Below, one piece after another: positions 706 through 42,219 of a DNA stretch of 51,725 nt. The stretch is from positions 6,543 to 58,267 of the forward strand of contig CAJOLB010000004.1 of assembly GCA_905235385.1 (NCBI GenBank), written 5' to 3'. Position 1 is the first letter of the stretch; each line of letters starts with the position of its first letter. The translations under genes were made by a program, and so were the position numbers. Below the pieces are notes generated by a model. It saw nothing but the letters and a program-made list of their open reading frames with translations. It was not told where the DNA came from and searched no databases. This DNA is from an uncultured Alphaproteobacteria bacterium. GTDB lineage: Bacteria; Pseudomonadota; Alphaproteobacteria; RF32; CAG-239.

Positions 706-1695
706 ATGTCCGATATTGAAGAAATTATAAAAAATTACTTTCCCGCCGAACATATTGAAAACATTCAAAACCTTGACGGGCGCGTTATTATCACCTTAAT
801 TGACACGCCTGAAAATATGTCGAAAGCTGAAGAATTGAAAAAAGAACTGTTGAAAACAGAAGGTGTTTTAAAAGCAACGGTTATTTTCACACGCAAAAAA
901 GCTTCTCCGACAACACTCGGAATCGAAAAGTGGGATATGAAAAACATCAAACATATTATCGGCGTTGCATCAGGCAAAGGCGGTGTCGGCAAATCAACAA
1001 CTGCTGTTAATCTGGCTTTAGCGCTTTCAAACTTAGGGCAAAAAGTTGCCGTCTTTGATGCGGATATCTACGGTCCTTCGTTGCCGACAATGTTGTCTTT
1101 TGAAAACACCCCGCCTGTTTCTTACGACGGTAAAACATTTGAGCCCTTTGAAAATTTCGGTGTCAAAGCGATATCAATCGGCTCGCTCATTGATCGTGAC
1201 ACACCTCTTATTTGGCGTGGTTCAAAAGCATGCGGCGCTATTGAACAAATGCTCAAAGAAACAAACTGGGGCGAAATTGATGTTATGGTAATAGATATGC
1301 CTCCCGGAACAGGCGATATTCAAATTACTCTTTCTCAACGCATTGACTTTGACGGTGTTGTGATTGTTTCAACCCCTCAAGATATTGCCTTAATTGATGC
1401 GGTCAAAGGCGTAAATATGTTTGAAAAAATAAACGTTAAGATTTTAGGTCTTATCCAAAATATGGCTTATTATGTTTGTCCTGATTGCGGCAAAAAGGCG
1501 TATATATTCGGTGAGAACGGCACAAAAGACACAGCCTCCCGCTTAGGACAGCAATTTTTAGGCGAGATTCCGCTTGATGTTTCCATTCGTGAAAATGCCG
1601 ATGCCGGCACACCTGTTGTGGCCGCAGATCCTGACGGGCCTCAAACAAAAGCCTATGAAGAAATTGCTCAAAAAATCTTAAAAGCGCTGTCATAA
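706..1695 (+). CDS. apbC: Mrp/NBP35-family iron-sulfur cluster carrier ATPase (ApbC)
   Basis: Deviant Walker A motif GKGGVGKST, a CPDCG motif, and an N-terminal DUF59-like region. 329 aa. Confidence 0.85.
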   Translation: MSDIEEIIKNYFPAEHIENIQNLDGRVIITLIDTPENMSKAEELKKELLKTEGVLKATVIFTRKKASPTTLGIEKWDMKNIKHIIGVASGKGGVGKSTTAVNLALALSNLGQKVAVFDADIYGPSLPTMLSFENTPPVSYDGKTFEPFENFGVKAISIGSLIDRDTPLIWRGSKACGAIEQMLKETNWGEIDVMVIDMPPGTGDIQITLSQRIDFDGVVIVSTPQDIALIDAVKGVNMFEKINVKILGLIQNMAYYVCPDCGKKAYIFGENGTKDTASRLGQQFLGEIPLDVSIRENADAGTPVVAADPDGPQTKAYEEIAQKILKALS

Positions 1696-1719: not shown

Positions 1720-1851
1720 GTCAAAGAAAAAGGAACCTTAAATTTTTACGATTCCTTTGAATTAAGTTTATCAAAAATTTATTTAAAAATCAATTAAAAT
1801 GAAATTTCAAAAAGTGTAAAGAAAAAAGGTTCATTTTTTCTTTACACTTTT
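1720..1851. promoter_or_regulatory. Invertible-promoter-like cassette, copy A
   Basis: Inverted repeats gtcaaagaaaaaggaacc (1720-1737) and ggttcattttttctttac (1828-1845). The internal promoter lies on the minus strand: TTGATT (1788-1793 rc), 17-nt spacer, TGaTAAACT (-10 at 1765-1770 rc). It points away from the pilin-like gene at 1866. A perfect 18-bp hairpin (1810-1827 / 1834-1851) lies directly before the RBS. Confidence 0.7.
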
Positions 1852-1865
1852 AAAGGAGAAAACAT

Positions 1866-2453
1866 ATGCAACAAAAAGGTAGAAGTATGGTCGAAATGCT
1901 TGGCGTCTTGGCAATCATTGGCGTTTTATCCGCCGGCGGTTTGGCAGGTTATCATCAAGCTGTTGCAAAGCACCGCTTAAATGTCTGGGGTGAACAGGTT
2001 CAACAAACATTAATGAATTTATACGAACTTTGCAAAGGTGATTCCGAGTGTAATTCTTCTAACAATATTTCTCTGAAAAATATTGTTCCTGAAGGCTTCC
2101 TCAAAAAACCTTACAATAATCGGCTTGGCTATGATATATATGGTAATAGCTGGCAAATGAATCCGCTGGGATTTTCTTTGCGTTTAGGCGGAACGCAATA
2201 TCAACAAAATGAAAATGTCATATCTTTTACCTGCCCTAAACTTCTCGAAATTTTAAAAGAAAGCAGAATTTATCAAATACGCATTTGGTCGCGTTTGGGA
2301 GCGATTTACATTAACTCAACTTCCAACTGTAACGTTTATACCTGTCTGTCTTTTGATGATTTAACAAAAGATAAACTACTCAAAATTTGCGAATCTTTGA
2401 CAAGTGAAGACAATGAAGAAAATGACACGATTTGGTATTTCTATTTTAACTAA
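1866..2453 (+). CDS. Prepilin-type N-terminal domain protein (type IV pilin / pseudopilin-like), paralog A
   Basis: N-terminus MQQKG-RSMVEMLGVLAIIGVLSAGGLAGY has a short basic leader, Gly at -1, Glu at +5 and a hydrophobic helix. RBS aaaggag precedes the ATG. C-terminal Cys motif C-x5-C-x14-C. Confidence 0.7.
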   Translation: MQQKGRSMVEMLGVLAIIGVLSAGGLAGYHQAVAKHRLNVWGEQVQQTLMNLYELCKGDSECNSSNNISLKNIVPEGFLKKPYNNRLGYDIYGNSWQMNPLGFSLRLGGTQYQQNENVISFTCPKLLEILKESRIYQIRIWSRLGAIYINSTSNCNVYTCLSFDDLTKDKLLKICESLTSEDNEENDTIWYFYFN

Positions 2454-19729: not shown

Positions 19730-19799
19730 TTTAATCATCACATACATCAAACATCTCTTTTCCGCGCAAAAACGACAAGCATCATCAAATTTTTAAACC

Positions 19800-19931
19800 G
19801 TAAAGAAATAACCAACCTTTTTTCTTTACACTTTTTAAAATTTCATTTTAATTGATTCTTAAGGAAAATTTTGATATGCTGATACAAAAGGAATCGTAAA
19901 AATTTAAGGTTCCTTTTTTCTTTACACTTTT
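19800..19931. promoter_or_regulatory. Invertible-promoter-like cassette, copy B (orphan)
   Basis: Inverted repeats gtaaagaaataaccaacc (19800-19817) and ggttccttttttctttac (19908-19925). The promoter is on the plus strand: TTGATT 19852-19857, 17-nt spacer, TGaTATGCT (-10 at 19875-19880). No pilin-like gene is adjacent. Confidence 0.7.
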
Positions 19932-20005: not shown

Positions 20006-20530
20006 ATGCTTGGTCGCTATACTTATACCTTGAGTACATTAACCCCCGATGAAGAAATTATTTTAGTCGGTCGGTTGCACTATTTTGCTTTAATCATTCC
20101 CTTTTTCTTAACTGTCACAACTTTCGTATCTTTGTTCTTTTCTATCGGATTTACAATTCAATTAAAAGGTGGAAATATTTTAGATTCGATGAAGATTTTT
20201 GCATGCTGGGCCGTCACATTGACCGTTTTTACCTGCACAATCGTTTCTTGGCTAACGCGCAATTTTATTGAAATGGTTTGCACCAGCAAACGTGTTGTCA
20301 AGCGCACCGGTATTATTAATGTTACAACCGAAGAGCTTAATCGTGAGAGAATCGAATCGGTTGAAATGCGTCAAAGCATATTCGGTCGTTTGTTTAATTA
20401 CGGCGATATTTTCTTTTCAGGCACCGGCACATCAAAATTGATTTTTCACTTTATCAACCAACCGAAACTGATGAAACAGATTATTGATGCGGTGATCAGT
20501 TCACCTCAACAACAGCCTGATGAACACTAA
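20006..20530 (+). CDS. Bacterial PH-domain (bPH_2, YdbS/YdbT-like) membrane protein
   Basis: Several N-terminal TM helices, then the segment VVKRTGIINVTTEELNRERIESVEMRQSIFGRLFNYGDI typical of bPH_2. Confidence 0.65.
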   Translation: MLGRYTYTLSTLTPDEEIILVGRLHYFALIIPFFLTVTTFVSLFFSIGFTIQLKGGNILDSMKIFACWAVTLTVFTCTIVSWLTRNFIEMVCTSKRVVKRTGIINVTTEELNRERIESVEMRQSIFGRLFNYGDIFFSGTGTSKLIFHFINQPKLMKQIIDAVISSPQQQPDEH

Positions 20531-26330: not shown

Positions 26331-26951
26331 TTATTTCCGCCACCAAAATTTCAAGCTAACAGATGTGGTGTCATTTTGACTGTGGAAATTGCACATTTCA
26401 AAAATTTTCTGTGTATTTAAATTTCTGATTTTTGAACAACTTTGACAACAACGATCGCCATAATATTGTTTTAGGCGCCTGTTTTCAGATGATGCTGCGG
26501 ATATTGTTTCAAAATAACACAATTCGGAGGCCCACTCTTTTGCTATTGTAAAAATATTTTGGCATTCTCTTAAGGCTGCCTCATTATCATCTTTCAGAGA
26601 AGATAAACTGATATGTAAAACAATATCTTCTGCCGTACTTGGCGAAACCCAGACACGGTTTTTGAAATCATCATACCAATATGTTCCGCTTTCATTTTGA
26701 ATCATTCCTTCCGGAACACTGTGCAACTTTTTAAGTATGTTCATCATACTTGTTTGATTTAAGCCGTATAAATCATTTTGATATTTTGTAATCCCCAGAA
26801 GCAGTTCGTTAATTTGTTCCATTTGTTTATTGAGTTTATGCTGAAACATCGCCTTTGAATAACCTGCTAAAGCACCGACGGATAAGATGCCGATGATGGC
26901 TAAGACGCCAAGCATTTCAACCATACTTCTGCCTCTTTGATTTATTTTCAT
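26331..26951 (-). CDS. Prepilin-type N-terminal domain protein (pilin-like), paralog C
   Basis: MKINQRG-RSMVEMLGVLAIIGILSVGALAGY, with RBS aaggag 7 nt upstream of ATG 26949-26951. The track's N-terminal extension (MLTQSRDD...) starts at a TTG and lies in the conserved non-coding leader. Confidence 0.7.
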   Translation of the reverse strand: MKINQRGRSMVEMLGVLAIIGILSVGALAGYSKAMFQHKLNKQMEQINELLLGITKYQNDLYGLNQTSMMNILKKLHSVPEGMIQNESGTYWYDDFKNRVWVSPSTAEDIVLHISLSSLKDDNEAALRECQNIFTIAKEWASELCYFETISAASSENRRLKQYYGDRCCQSCSKIRNLNTQKIFEMCNFHSQNDTTSVSLKFWWRK

Positions 26952-26969: not shown

Positions 26970-27006
26970 GTCATCCCTCGATTGCGTCAGCAATCGTCAA
27001 GGGATC
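26970..27006 (-). promoter_or_regulatory. Conserved bulged leader hairpin (copy C)
   Basis: The mRNA sense strand reads GAUCCCU-UGA-CGAUUGC-UGAC-GCAAUCG-AGGGAU. It lies between the cassette and the RBS. Confidence 0.55.
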
Positions 27007-27022
27007 TTCAAATTTTTAAACC

Positions 27023-27154
27023 GTAAAGAAATAACCAACCTTTTTTCTTTACACTTTTTAAAATTTCATTTTAATTGATTCTTAAGGAAAATTTTGATAG
27101 GATTAAATAAAAGGAATCGTAAAAATTTAAGGTTCCTTTTTTCTTTACACTTTT
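27023..27154. promoter_or_regulatory. Invertible-promoter-like cassette, copy C
   Basis: Inverted repeats at 27023-27040 and 27131-27148. The promoter is on the plus strand: TTGATT 27075-27080, 17-nt spacer, TGaTAGGAT (-10 at 27098-27103). It points away from pilin-like gene C. Confidence 0.75.
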
Positions 27155-39199: not shown

Positions 39200-39236
39200 T
39201 CCATCAGTTTTGTTTGATTTCATAGTCAACTTCTTT

Positions 39237-39271
39237 AAAAAAACGAATCGGAATTCCGATTCGTTTTTTTT
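39237..39271. terminator. Bidirectional terminator between rplQ and pilin-like gene D
   Basis: A-run, stem aacgaatcgg / ccgattcgtt, then T8. Confidence 0.8.
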
Positions 39272-39932
39272 AATCTTTAACCCAATCACCAGTTTGATGC
39301 ATCGCTACTCCACACACTTGGTCTCTACAGGTCCTTTCGCAAATATCCAATTTCTCATCCATTGTCAAACTTTCTGCTTTCGGATCTCTTTTGGAACAAT
39401 AGTCTCCACATACAGTTTTCCATGCAAAAGTTTGTGTTGAATTATGAAAATACATGTAATCTGTATTCGCAGCATCAATAAAAAAGTTGATGTATTCAAC
39501 GCAAAGTTCAACGCGGTTTTCTCCTTTTAACGAAACAACTATTCCGATAATTTTTTGAACTGTTGGTGAATTATATCTTACTTCTATTTCGTTTTTCCAA
39601 GCATCTAATACCTTATTTTTTTGTATCATATTTTTTGGGAAAATTCCCATTTTGATTGCCATACTTGTTGTGAAGGTATCAACATCTGTCTTCCCATATA
39701 AAGCTGATGACAAATTCATCCATGCTTGGCTGAAGTTATTGAAAAATTGGTTTCTTTTGTGCTTTTCCATAGCCTTGTTAAAACCTGCTAATGCCCCAAC
39801 ACTTAAAATGCCGATAATCGCCAAAACCCCGAGCATCTCAACCATACTTCTTCCTAAAGATGTCATCCCTCGTTTTTGCATTGCAAAAACGTCAAGGGAT
39901 CTTCTGTTTTTTTTATCTATTCTTCTTTTCAT
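39270..39932 (-). CDS. Prepilin-type N-terminal domain protein (pilin-like), paralog D, with an extended leader
   Basis: The GRSMVEMLGVLAIIGILSVGALAGF core is preceded by a 33-aa basic leader if ATG 39930-39932 (RBS aaggag) is the start. An alternative start is MQKRG at 39879-39881. Confidence 0.65.
   Translation of the reverse strand: MKRRIDKKNRRSLDVFAMQKRGMTSLGRSMVEMLGVLAIIGILSVGALAGFNKAMEKHKRNQFFNNFSQAWMNLSSALYGKTDVDTFTTSMAIKMGIFPKNMIQKNKVLDAWKNEIEVRYNSPTVQKIIGIVVSLKGENRVELCVEYINFFIDAANTDYMYFHNSTQTFAWKTVCGDYCSKRDPKAESLTMDEKLDICERTCRDQVCGVAMHQTGDWVKD
39862..39901 (-). promoter_or_regulatory. Second copy of the bulged leader hairpin, inside the 5' coding leader of paralog D
   Basis: GAUCCCU-UGA-CGUUUUUGC-AAU-GCAAAAACG-AGGGAU. 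The outer stem and bulge match the other copies. The inner stem has a different sequence but still pairs. Confidence 0.5.
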
Positions 39933-39950
39933 TTCTATTCTCCTTATAGC

Positions 39951-39987
39951 GTCATCCCTCGATTGCGTCAGCAATCGTCAAAGGATC
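39951..39987 (-). promoter_or_regulatory. Conserved bulged leader hairpin (copy D1)
   Basis: Nearly identical to 26970-27006 and in the same position relative to the RBS. Confidence 0.55.
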
Positions 39988-40003
39988 TTCAAATTTTTAA
40001 ACC

Positions 40004-40135
40004 GTAAAGAAAAAACGAACCTTAAATTTTTACGATTCCTTTTGTATCAGCATATCAAAATTTTCCTTAAGAATCAATTAAAATGAAATTTCAAAAAGTG
40101 TAAAAAAAATAGGTTCCTTTTTTCTTTACACTTTT
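40004..40135. promoter_or_regulatory. Invertible-promoter-like cassette, copy D (interior flipped relative to copy C)
   Basis: Inverted repeats gtaaagaaaaaacgaacc (40004-40021) and ggttccttttttctttac (40112-40129). The promoter is on the minus strand: TTGATT at 40072-40077 rc, 17-nt spacer, TGaTATGCT (-10 at 40049-40054 rc). It points toward pilin-like gene D. Confidence 0.75.
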
Positions 40136-40337
40136 AAGATTCAAAACACCAAAAAAAACGCCGAGAATGAGGCAAATAAAACACTAACAATGCTTAGGAT
40201 AAGTTAAAGTCATAAAAGTTCGGAGAATAGGTCAAATAGAGTTATTTTCAAGGCGAGCAAAATTTTAGCGTAAATAAGCCTACGTGAATTTTGCGAGACC
40301 GCAGAAAATAGCTCTAGATAACCTGTTATACGAGCTT

Positions 40338-41633
40338 TTAAAAGTCGTCTTCTTTGATACGCTCTATATCCGCACCAACTCCCCTTAACTTCTCTTCCAG
40401 CCTTTCATAGCCGCGGTCAAGGTGATAAACACGGTTTACAATCGTTTCACCATCTGCGACAAGACCGGCTAAAACAAGTGCGAAAGAAGCGCGTAAATCC
40501 GTTGCCATCACAGGGGCACCCGAAAGTTTTTTCACACCGCGCACAATTGCTGAGGCATGGCCATGAACGTTGATATTTGCACCCATACGCATCAGTTCCG
40601 GCACATGCATAAAGCGGTTTTCCCAAATATTCTCGGTTACCATCGAAGCCCCCGGCACAACTGTCATTAGAGCCATGAACTGTGCCTGCAAGTCAGTCGG
40701 AAAACCGGGATAATAATCTGTCATAATATCTTGTCCGCTCATATCAGCATTTCTGGCATCAACAACAATGCTGTTTGCTTTTTCGGTGATTTTAATATCC
40801 ATATTGCGCAAAATATTAAGCGGTGTTTTCAAATGTTCCGCAACGGCATTGATGAGCTCTATTCTGCCTTTTGTGATGGCTGCGGCAATTGCATATGAAC
40901 CTGCCTCAATTCGGTCGGGCAAAACGCTGTGTTCCGCACCATGAAGTTCTTTAACACCCTCGATTTTAAGCTGAGATGTGTTTTTGCCCTCAATTTTTGC
41001 GCCCATTTTCACAAGCAAATCAATTAAATCCGCAATTTCAGGCTCTTGCGCCGCATTTTCAATCAGGGTTTCACCTTTTGCAAGCGTTGCCGCCATCAAG
41101 ATGTTGCATGTTGCACCCACCGATGCTTTCGGAAAAATAATATGTGCGCCTTTCAAACCTTTTTTGGCATCAGCAATCACATAACCGTTTTTAATTTCAA
41201 TGGTCGCCCCCATCGCTTCTAATGAATTTAGGTGAATATCCATCGGTCTTGCACCGATTGCACACCCGCCCGGAAGCGAGAGTTCCACGTGCCCGACGCG
41301 CGCTAAAATCGGACCTAAAACATAATATGAGGCGCGCATTTTTCGAACATAATCATAAGGTGCAATCAGGCTCTTAAATTCTTTTGTTTGGTAGGTATAT
41401 GTTTTTGAGGTGTATCCCCCTTTTGTTTCCTCTGTTTCTTCAATTTCCGTGCCGAGTTCTATTAAAAGTTTGTTCAAAGATCTGATATCAGAAAGAATCG
41501 GCATATTTGAAAGCCTGACTTTTTCACCTGTGAGCAAACTTGCCGTAATTAAAGGAAGCGCCGCATTTTTTGCGCCGCTGATATAAATTTTTCCGTTTAA
41601 TTGGTTTCCGCCTCTGATTTTAATCTTGTCCAT
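40338..41633 (-). CDS. murA: UDP-N-acetylglucosamine 1-carboxyvinyltransferase MurA
   Basis: Full-length MurA similarity (ISGAKNAALP; active-site loop LPGGCAIGARPMD). Confidence 0.96.
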   Translation of the reverse strand: MDKIKIRGGNQLNGKIYISGAKNAALPLITASLLTGEKVRLSNMPILSDIRSLNKLLIELGTEIEETEETKGGYTSKTYTYQTKEFKSLIAPYDYVRKMRASYYVLGPILARVGHVELSLPGGCAIGARPMDIHLNSLEAMGATIEIKNGYVIADAKKGLKGAHIIFPKASVGATCNILMAATLAKGETLIENAAQEPEIADLIDLLVKMGAKIEGKNTSQLKIEGVKELHGAEHSVLPDRIEAGSYAIAAAITKGRIELINAVAEHLKTPLNILRNMDIKITEKANSIVVDARNADMSGQDIMTDYYPGFPTDLQAQFMALMTVVPGASMVTENIWENRFMHVPELMRMGANINVHGHASAIVRGVKKLSGAPVMATDLRASFALVLAGLVADGETIVNRVYHLDRGYERLEEKLRGVGADIERIKEDDF

Positions 41634-41766: not shown

Positions 41767-41905
41767 GTCGCACCTCTTTGTTCGCAATATAGATATTTCT
41801 TACTATAAATCGGTTTATTTTCAAGTCTTTTGCTTTATCTATACACGCAGATATTTATTTGTGCCGAAAGCACAAACCTTGCCAAGGTTGATCTCGAGCC
41901 TGTTT

Positions 41906-41994
41906 CAATAACAAAAAACCACCTGAAAAGGCAATGGGATGGAGCGCGACATTGCCTTCGGCAACGCTTGCTCATCTCGCTTCGCTCAATTCCG
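41906..41994. repeat. 89-bp repeat unit 1 next to tRNA-Gly
   Basis: Identical by eye to 42030-42118. It starts with caataacaaaaaaccacctgaaaagg and contains the hairpin ggcaatg...cattgcc. Confidence 0.8.
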
Positions 41995-42029
41995 GACCCT
42001 TCGCGGCTTCTCTTACCCATTGTCTGTTC

Positions 42030-42118
42030 CAATAACAAAAAACCACCTGAAAAGGCAATGGGATGGAGCGCGACATTGCCTTCGGCAACGCTTGCTCATC
42101 TCGCTTCGCTCAATTCCG
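42030..42118. repeat. 89-bp repeat unit 2, bracketed by an 18-bp perfect inverted repeat
   Basis: caataacaaaaaaccacc (42030-42047) is the reverse complement of ggtggttttttgttattg (42129-42146). The latter overlaps the 3' end of tRNA-Gly by 2 nt. Confidence 0.8.
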
Positions 42119-42144
42119 CACCTGAAAAGGTGGTTTTTTGTTAT

Positions 42145-42219
42145 TGGAGCGGGCAATGGGATTCGGACCCACGACATCAACCTTGGCAAGGTTGCGCTCT
42201 ACCCCTGAGCTATACCCGC
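42145..42219 (-). tRNA. tRNA-Gly (anticodon GCC), CCA encoded
   Basis: Hand-folded cloverleaf: GCGGGTA TA GCTC AGGGGTA GAGC G CAACC TTGCCAA GGTTG ATGTC GTGGG TCCGAAT CCCAT TGCCCGC T CCA. The T-loop reads TCCGAAT rather than the usual TTCGAAT. Confidence 0.85.

Follow-up and report, generated by a model that had tools for sequence, protein, structure and literature searches.

A perfect palindrome abutting a pilin-like gene probably marks a promoter inverton in the OFF orientation in an uncultured alphaproteobacterium

Why should a perfect palindrome stand directly in front of the ribosome-binding site (RBS) of a pilin-like gene, and why does the cassette that carries it point its promoter away from that gene? 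These questions are raised by a locus, here called A, in a 51,725-nucleotide stretch of DNA from an uncultured rumen alphaproteobacterium (the window; positions 6543-58267 of contig C4 in genome G000, which comprises 1.33 Mb in 89 contigs at 39% G+C). A sequence-only reading had described cassette A as mounted in mirror image relative to its gene and its palindrome as a relocatable insulator or terminator. Judging from sequence organization, we consider cassette A to be probably a promoter inverton, that is, an on/off switch operated by site-specific inversion, which presently lies in the OFF orientation. The palindrome is most likely the crossover site at which a dimer of a small serine invertase would bind; it would be palindromic because a dimer-binding site is a dyad, and neither a terminator nor an insulator is needed to explain it.

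The palindrome itself is present as it had been described: AAAAGTGTAAAGAAAAAA at 1810-1827 is exactly complementary, in reverse, to 1834-1851, with the loop GGTTCA at 1828-1833, and the Shine-Dalgarno sequence AAAGGAG (1852-1858, plus strand) follows immediately, 7 nt 5' of the ATG of the pilin-like gene. With up to three mismatches, the 18-mer occurs 9 times in the window against 1.0 expected, a count reached in none of 100 shuffled sequences. Positions 1816-1845, the core of the palindrome, form the gene-proximal of two putative crossover sites, each laid out as a 14-bp half-site, a 2-bp centre and a second 14-bp half-site, as at 15 loci; its inner half-site GTAAAGAAAAAAGG (1816-1829), centre TT (1830-1831) and outer half-site CATTTTTTCTTTAC (1832-1845) give symmetry at 13 of 14 positions. 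The gene-distal site (1720-1749), composed of the outer half-site GTCAAAGAAAAAGG (1720-1733), the centre AA (1734-1735) and the inner half-site CCTTAAATTTTTAC (1736-1749), is symmetric at 9 of 14. Between the centre dinucleotides, which are 96 bp apart, lies the putative invertible segment (1736-1829; neither it nor the sites are assigned a strand), which holds the promoter and both inner half-sites. Promoter A (1765-1793, minus strand) consists of the -35 element TTGATT (1793-1788), a 17-nt spacer, a TG at 1773-1772 and the -10 element TAAACT (1770-1765); it aligns with a -35/-10 pair kept in 12 cassette copies and, as had been claimed, fires toward the terminator of the upstream gene. The gene that it turns its back on (1866-2453, plus strand, 195 aa, followed by a terminator at 2455-2482) encodes a protein with a prepilin-like N-terminus, MQQKG/RSMVEMLGVLAIIG, which has Gly at -1 and Glu at +5 and matches the N_methyl motif at E = 0.0045, below the Pfam cut-off. 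Genome G000 contains 16 N-termini of this kind and encodes elsewhere a prepilin peptidase, PilB/PilT-like ATPases and a PilC-like platform protein; the pilin-like proteins of the cassette loci are thus plausibly real type IV pilins.

Cassette A belongs to a family. A whole-genome survey of G000 found 15 complete units and several truncated ones. In every unit, two 30-bp sites lie in inverted orientation, each reading, from outside to inside, a 14-bp half-site, the centre AA and another 14-bp half-site; the outer half-site follows the consensus GT[A/C]AA-N-WWWW-W-A-GG and is most often GTAAAGAAAAAAGG, the inner half-site begins with CCT, and the centre-to-centre spacing is 96-97 bp at every G000 locus. 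A strict pattern that combines both inner half-sites with the spacing gave 12 matches in G000, 3 in the sister species G005 and none in 120 other genomes of the family, and the reversed pattern used as a control gave none. Complete cassettes were found in G000 and G005 only, and fragments in G007. The promoter is also conserved: in the 12 aligned copies, the -35 element is TTGATT or TTGACT (TTGTTT in one, on contig C11), the spacer is 17 nt long, a TG stands one base 5' of the -10 element, and the -10 element is fixed at T1, A2 and T6 with a variable middle (TATGCT, TATACT, TATAAT, TACAAT, TATGAT, TAGGAT; TAAACT at A). Conservation confined to the critical positions is the pattern that selection on a sigma-70 promoter produces.

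Two subfamilies can be distinguished. The promoter of every pilin-subfamily cassette faces away from whichever of its two sites is the more symmetric and reads through ...CGTAAAAATTTAAGG-TT-CC.... The cassettes of the second subfamily, which lie outside the window (C12:12349-12475, C17:8972-9096, C25:2262-2386, C39:21399-21524 and C57:7166-7291), precede genes of signal-peptide proteins with YD/RHS-like repeats; they carry the stronger promoter TTGACT-N17-TATGAT, with TGn 5' of the -10 element, and have symmetric inner half-sites, both GTAAAAAAAATAGG. Within the window, a repeat search returned four cassettes of approximately 150 nt: A (1716-1864), B (19781-19931), C (27004-27154) and D (39985-40148). 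A and D (the latter over 40000-40148) are direct repeats on the plus strand with 84% identity, B and C are direct repeats with 96% identity, and the A/D pair is inverted relative to B/C, A being 84-86% complementary to both. A has its pilin-like gene on the right, C and D have theirs on the left, and B has none beside it; the earlier observation that A shares the plus-strand order of D with its gene on the other side is therefore borne out. Taken as units, again without strand, cassette B (19798-19923) directs its promoter rightward, toward a bPH-domain gene (20006-20530); cassette C (27021-27146) also directs it rightward, away from pilin gene C (26331-26951, minus strand), and is OFF; and cassette D (40002-40127) directs it leftward, toward pilin gene D (39270-39932, minus strand), and is ON.

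When each promoter is read relative to its own gene, the supposed mirror-image mounting of A ceases to be a special feature. The internal order of a cassette is its switch state: relative to the gene, A equals C (OFF) and is the opposite of D (ON). The promoter points away from the gene at seven of the eight pilin-linked loci, namely A, C and those on contigs C1, C3, C5 (where the gene is a pseudogene), C22 and C44, and D alone is ON. Elsewhere, the cassette on contig C17 is ON, toward a YD-repeat-like secreted protein, and those on contigs C11, C12 and C57 are OFF. On contig C39, the promoter faces the right-hand gene and a second, outward-facing secreted-protein gene lies on the left, and this unit, by its predicted gene layout, is a true two-way toggle. 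The proposal that cassettes of this kind serve genes on either side thus holds within the family, but not at A. To the left of A there are only the end of an apbC/mrp-like ATPase gene (706-1695, plus strand; the gene, identical in other assemblies, matches ParA/MipZ/CbiA-type Pfam families) and its bidirectional-looking terminator (1680-1705), so that A would be a plain ON/OFF switch. At contig C44 (4830-4926), the OFF-state promoter of the pilin switch points at rpmI, the gene of ribosomal protein L35, 146 nt away.

The evidence that such interiors have been inverted comes from paralogous loci, between which the outer arms are fixed and the interior is flipped. The gene side of cassettes C, B, D and that of contig C5 carries the leader and an ACGGTTT arm, and the far side the ACACTTTT arm; in D, the interior is reversed. 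A derived duplication of the leader is common to D and the contig C5 locus, each of which encodes MKRRIDKKN...SLGRSM, and yet their states are opposite. The paralogs on contigs C57 and C39 have the identical gene start MKIKYTLAFLLLV and the same proximal arm, with opposite interiors. Immediately outside the centre, the loci differ in one dinucleotide (TG, CG, CC, GG), and this goes with the gene flank whether the switch is ON or OFF; the exchange is thereby placed at the centre AA or in the adjoining CCT. Since a transposon-like element would bring its own ends along whichever way it inserts, fixed ends combined with a flipped interior argue for exchange inside the sites.

Applied to A, this suggests the following mechanism. 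Two inverted 30-bp recombination sites, with centres 96 bp apart, would bracket an extended -10 promoter of the sigma-70 type, and recombination at the centre dinucleotides would turn the 96-bp segment round and aim the promoter at the AAAGGAG-N7-ATG of pilin A. The gene-proximal site would be a near-perfect dyad because the consensus GTAAAGAAAAAAGG happens to be matched by its inner half-site as well as by its outer one, a coincidence of two consensus half-sites at one site that is found at A and on contig C11. Because the flip would swap the inner half-sites, the perfect dyad would be lost as a by-product; in the simulated inversion, the consensus inner half-site goes to the far end, where it faces the divergent outer arm, and no perfect dyad is left anywhere.

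The RBS-abutting palindrome is likewise no peculiarity of A. A junction in which the outer arm runs straight into the RBS is the commonest type, found at five of the eight pilin loci (A and contigs C1, C3, C22 and C44); the arm is ACACTTTT at four of these and ACGCATT at contig C3. At C, D and contig C5, the ACGGTTT arm is followed instead by a 70-nt leader with a hairpin, and the ACACTTTT arm is, as had been noted, gene-proximal at A and gene-distal at C and D. With outer arms of the ACAC type on both sides at contigs C1, C22 and C44, the cassette lacks the consistent polarity that mirroring would presuppose. The distal arm of A, GTCAAAGAAAAAGG, is a half-site variant of normal length of the GTCAA type, as at contigs C17 and C39. 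We considered whether the left flank of A, AATCGTCAAAG, could be a remnant of the C/D leader, which would have made A a two-sided unit at one time; this idea was rejected as weak, since the GTCAA-type outer half-sites of contigs C17 and C39 mark the flank as simply a half-site variant. The 70-nt leaders of pilin genes C and D (26970-27006, 39951-39987 and 39862-39901) form a bulged hairpin, absent at A and without an Rfam match, whose inner stem covaries (CGATTGC/GCAATCG versus CGTTTTTGC/GCAAAAACG); a metagenome relative (L045) has a longer version of it.

Which enzyme would act on these sites? G000 encodes five recombinase candidates. A 202-aa serine recombinase, encoded on contig C48 adjoining dnaA, is 98% identical in G005, the other genome with complete cassettes. 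It carries a YIRVSTDKQ motif with the presumed catalytic Ser near its N-terminus, a Resolvase domain (E = 3e-32) and weak C-terminal HTH_7/HTH_23 matches at 164-200, and its best matches in the PDB are to the Gin DNA-invertase (4m6f, 3uj3). We infer that this one protein, acting in trans, would serve all of the switches, of which there are at least 15. An inverted-repeat search near its gene found no cassette sites and nothing informative. Two other candidates were rejected: a truncated tyrosine recombinase (contig C12) has counterparts of 94-97% identity in G009 and G010, neither of which has cassettes, and none in cassette-bearing G005, and a 545-aa large serine recombinase (contig C18) was not found in G005. 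The remaining two are Xer-sized tyrosine recombinases of 312 and 317 aa on contigs C9 and C5. In related species (G002 and G009), small segments bounded by inverted repeats lie directly beside serine-recombinase paralogs (L128:4185-4350, L129:1169-1314 and L130:1901-2018); the arms are 132 nt apart in one of them, which has the sequence TAAACC-AA-CGTTTA, and 90 and 118 nt apart in the others, and two of these loci (L128 and L129) have a pilin-like gene next to them. One of these serine recombinases stands beside rplQ, the place that pilin D occupies in G000. The shared centre AA, the non-matching bases adjoining it and these pairs of invertons and serine recombinases in relatives together favour a serine invertase over a tyrosine enzyme.

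Several observations weigh against a working switch at A. The hexamers of its promoter, although located where the sequence-only reading had placed them, match the consensus at 8 of 12 positions and were not listed by a strict promoter scan; the -10 element furthest from consensus (TAAACT) and the most strongly diverged distal half-site, symmetric at 9 of 14 positions, are both those of A. A loop of 96 bp is very short for a synapse. The assignment of the recombinase rests on co-occurrence in two genomes only, and orthologs of the 202-aa protein, at 70-76% identity, occur in genomes that do not have these sites. Moreover, the flipped state, which was sought at A, C, D and contigs C3, C12, C17 and C22 among the listed places that include the upstream region, has not appeared. 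At A, where the flipped junctions would read ...GTCAAAGAAAAAGGAA/CCTTTTTTCTTTACAC... and ...AAATTTAAGGTT/CATTTTTTCTTTACACTTTTAAAGGAG..., two European Nucleotide Archive (ENA) assemblies and one Logan assembly have the identical OFF arrangement, in a comparison of low power, as these assemblies are consensus sequences of apparently one strain and their contigs break inside the repeated cassette, so that minor subpopulations would be missed. D, C and contigs C3, C12 and C17 keep their G000 state in every other assembly examined. The ortholog of A in G005, the only cross-species ortholog that has a cassette, is OFF as well (flanks 90% identical), and its pilin gene is largely deleted. A scan of Joint Genome Institute (JGI) metagenomes with a conserved 22-mer returned three contigs, none of which is orthologous to A. 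The alternate orientation at A, on which the earlier proposal depended, has thus never been seen so far in the limited data of three assemblies and G005, and opposite interiors are found only between paralogous loci. Identical states across assemblies mean that switching, if it occurs, is rare or strongly selected, and we consider it no more likely than not that A switches at present.

These observations could also be read as the trace of a locked relic: a mobile or duplicated promoter module resembling a miniature inverted-repeat transposable element (MITE), once invertible or inserted in either direction, which is now fixed at A and leaves the pilin permanently silent. The identical states at six loci in all other assemblies, the G005 ortholog that is still OFF after most of its gene was lost, and the weakest -10 element and most divergent distal half-site at A would all suit such a history. 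So would the distribution of the units. A pilin-plus-cassette module is present on contig C167 of G005 (L010) and missing from the syntenic G000:C54:6409-6554, and the same is true of window positions 39200-40340, the D locus, compared with the empty locus G004:C22:19341-19477; the other G005 cassettes lie at positions that are cassette-free in G000. Pilin-plus-cassette modules therefore seem to be gained or lost as units. Half-cassette relics are numerous, and one metagenome contig has the promoter and one site only. We nevertheless regard permanent locking as rather doubtful. A MITE inserted in either direction would bring its own ends, whereas here the ends stay with the flanks and the interior alone differs; 15 loci adhere strictly to the spacing of 96-97 bp and to the half-site pattern; the genome has a well-conserved gene of the invertase type; and the open reading frame of pilin A is intact and identical in the three other assemblies.

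Less probable still, and in our view unlikely, is the function that had been proposed for the hairpin, namely that of a selected relocatable terminator or insulator that shields the RBS and gene from read-through in the OFF state and is moved to the far side by inversion. The palindrome of A, as RNA, is very stable (-19.7 kcal/mol, z = -6.2; equal stability in 0 of 200 shuffles) and directly abuts the RBS, and the claim that inversion would remove it from in front of the gene was reproduced in silico: upon inversion of 1735-1830, the gene-proximal fold dropped from -18.7 to -3.5 kcal/mol. In addition, at 8 of 10 pilin-subfamily loci, the more stable of the two sites is that behind the promoter, so that the ON-state 5' untranslated region (UTR) avoids a strong hairpin. 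However, the hairpin does not resemble a terminator: its stem has 3 G-C pairs in 18, and AAAGGAG rather than a plus-strand T-run follows it. A terminator scan of 1600-2600 did not list it, returning only the terminators of the apbC/mrp-like and pilin genes, so the upstream gene has one of its own already; an Rfam scan of the whole window at gathering thresholds returned tRNA only. Nor is hairpin strength tied consistently to switch state: behind the promoter it ranges from -3.3 to -17.2 kcal/mol across the pilin subfamily, the asymmetry is absent or reversed in the second subfamily, and at contig C17, where the gene is ON, a hairpin of -16.1 kcal/mol lies between promoter and RBS. Dimer binding would, besides, already account for the dyad at A. 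A side benefit of the hairpin, by which the ON-state 5' UTR lacks a strong fold and the OFF gene enjoys some shielding, is possible. In the simulated ON-state 5' UTR (1795-1880), base pairing is possible between the U-rich outer arm UUUUUUCUUUA and the purine-rich Shine-Dalgarno region UAAAGGAGAAAA, with a total fold of -10.3 kcal/mol, and this predicted pairing could modulate translation.

That the same switch is run by a Xer-like tyrosine recombinase is highly unlikely: the sites can equally be parsed into the typical tyrosine-recombinase core of a 12-bp arm, a 6-bp overlap and a 12-bp arm, and two full-length tyrosine enzymes (the 312- and 317-aa proteins) are encoded, but the overlaps of partner sites would then differ (TGAACC versus GGAACC at A), which normally blocks strand exchange, whereas the shared AA fits a 2-bp serine crossover; at least one of the full-length enzymes has a counterpart of approximately 317 aa in most genomes of the genus, cassette-less ones included, consistent with XerC/XerD housekeeping; the third, truncated tyrosine recombinase does not co-occur with cassettes; and relatives pair small invertons with serine recombinases.

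Some further repeats accompany the cassettes. Truncated cassettes, with one site or with the promoter and one site, lie at C8:23229-23290, C15:16916-16961, C1:45827-45875, C1:9276-9300 and C20:4690-4742 and in the metagenome contigs L046/L047; at C20:4690, a leader stands with a single collapsed site, and in one metagenome contig the promoter is fixed before a gene. By their sequence, these look like relics of decayed or locked switches. A repeat of approximately 130 nt to the right of cassette D (40212-40344) has many copies in G000 (for example C20:245-369, C26:6031-6158 and others on contigs C34 and C40) and occurs also in G004, G005 and G008; it has a MITE-like look and often lies beside cassette relics. 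Two 99-nt direct repeats (41900-42122; 98% identical, 124-nt period) lie beside the tRNA-Gly gene at 42148-42219.

Returning to the inverton reading, we can propose tentatively a scheme for the whole family, which is less secure than the interpretation of A itself. One small serine invertase acting in trans might drive at least 15 ultra-short (96-bp) promoter invertons, and the outcome might be near one-at-a-time expression of type IV pilins, with one of eight ON, together with phase variation of YD-repeat surface proteins; some units would be two-way toggles, and the uneven symmetry of the dyads might have been tuned so as to keep a strong hairpin out of the ON transcript and to shield the OFF gene with one. 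Should the switches be active, a gut and rumen lineage with a tiny genome (RF32/"Enterousia"-like) would have an unusually dense set of invertons for pili and surface proteins, which would point to strong pressure from phage, protists or the host. The 96-bp spacing would then be among the shortest inversion loops of the serine type and could provide a compact natural part for synthetic switches. For annotation, we suggest the label of recombination site for the palindrome and that of OFF-state inverton for the locus, in place of a special mirror-mounted cassette or a mobile terminator.

As an on/off switch, the arrangement is of a known kind and not a new device; what is notable is the 96-bp segment, the full 30-bp dyad sites, the presence of at least 15 copies in 1.3 Mb and the single ON pilin among eight. 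Like fimS of E. coli, which is inverted by FimB/FimE, it is a short promoter segment of the invertible type that would set a pilus subunit gene ON or OFF, and the OFF state is one in which the promoter points away from the gene. The fimS element has adjacent tyrosine recombinases, 9-bp repeats and a 314-bp segment. The cassettes described here have no tyrosine recombinase adjacent, and in the absence of a dedicated enzyme of that class they are not fim-like. The resemblance to the Hin/Gin/Cin/Pin group lies in the candidate enzyme, which is closest to Gin and has the layout of a catalytic domain plus HTH, and in the sites, which, as hix and gix do, appear to consist of two imperfect inverted half-sites around a 2-bp centre (here AA) and are themselves inverted; the related-species sites TAAACC-AA-CGTTTA look even more hix-like. 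Unlike in the Hin and Gin systems, however, the recombinase gene is neither within nor beside the segment, being encoded near dnaA on another contig; instead of one target there are many; the half-sites measure 14 bp and have a different sequence; and no enhancer or Fis site can be placed in the 96-bp segment, which holds the promoter only. With the recombinase unlinked to the segment and no evident enhancer, the cassettes are not of the Hin type.

The closest known system is Mpi of Bacteroides fragilis, in which one small serine recombinase, encoded elsewhere in the genome, inverts many dispersed promoters of surface structures. The Bacteroides invertible segments are roughly 170-190 bp long. 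In comparison with Mpi, the segment here is only 96 bp, the sites are full 14-2-14 dyads of different sequence, and the link between enzyme and site is drawn from sequence alone; instead of capsule operons, type IV pilin-like genes and the genes of YD-repeat-like secreted proteins would be targeted, in an uncultured alphaproteobacterium of the rumen whose genome measures 1.3 Mb. The architecture nevertheless fits that of Mpi: short promoter-bearing segments within inverted repeats are scattered over the genome upstream of surface-structure genes, and a single small serine recombinase encoded elsewhere would act on all of them.

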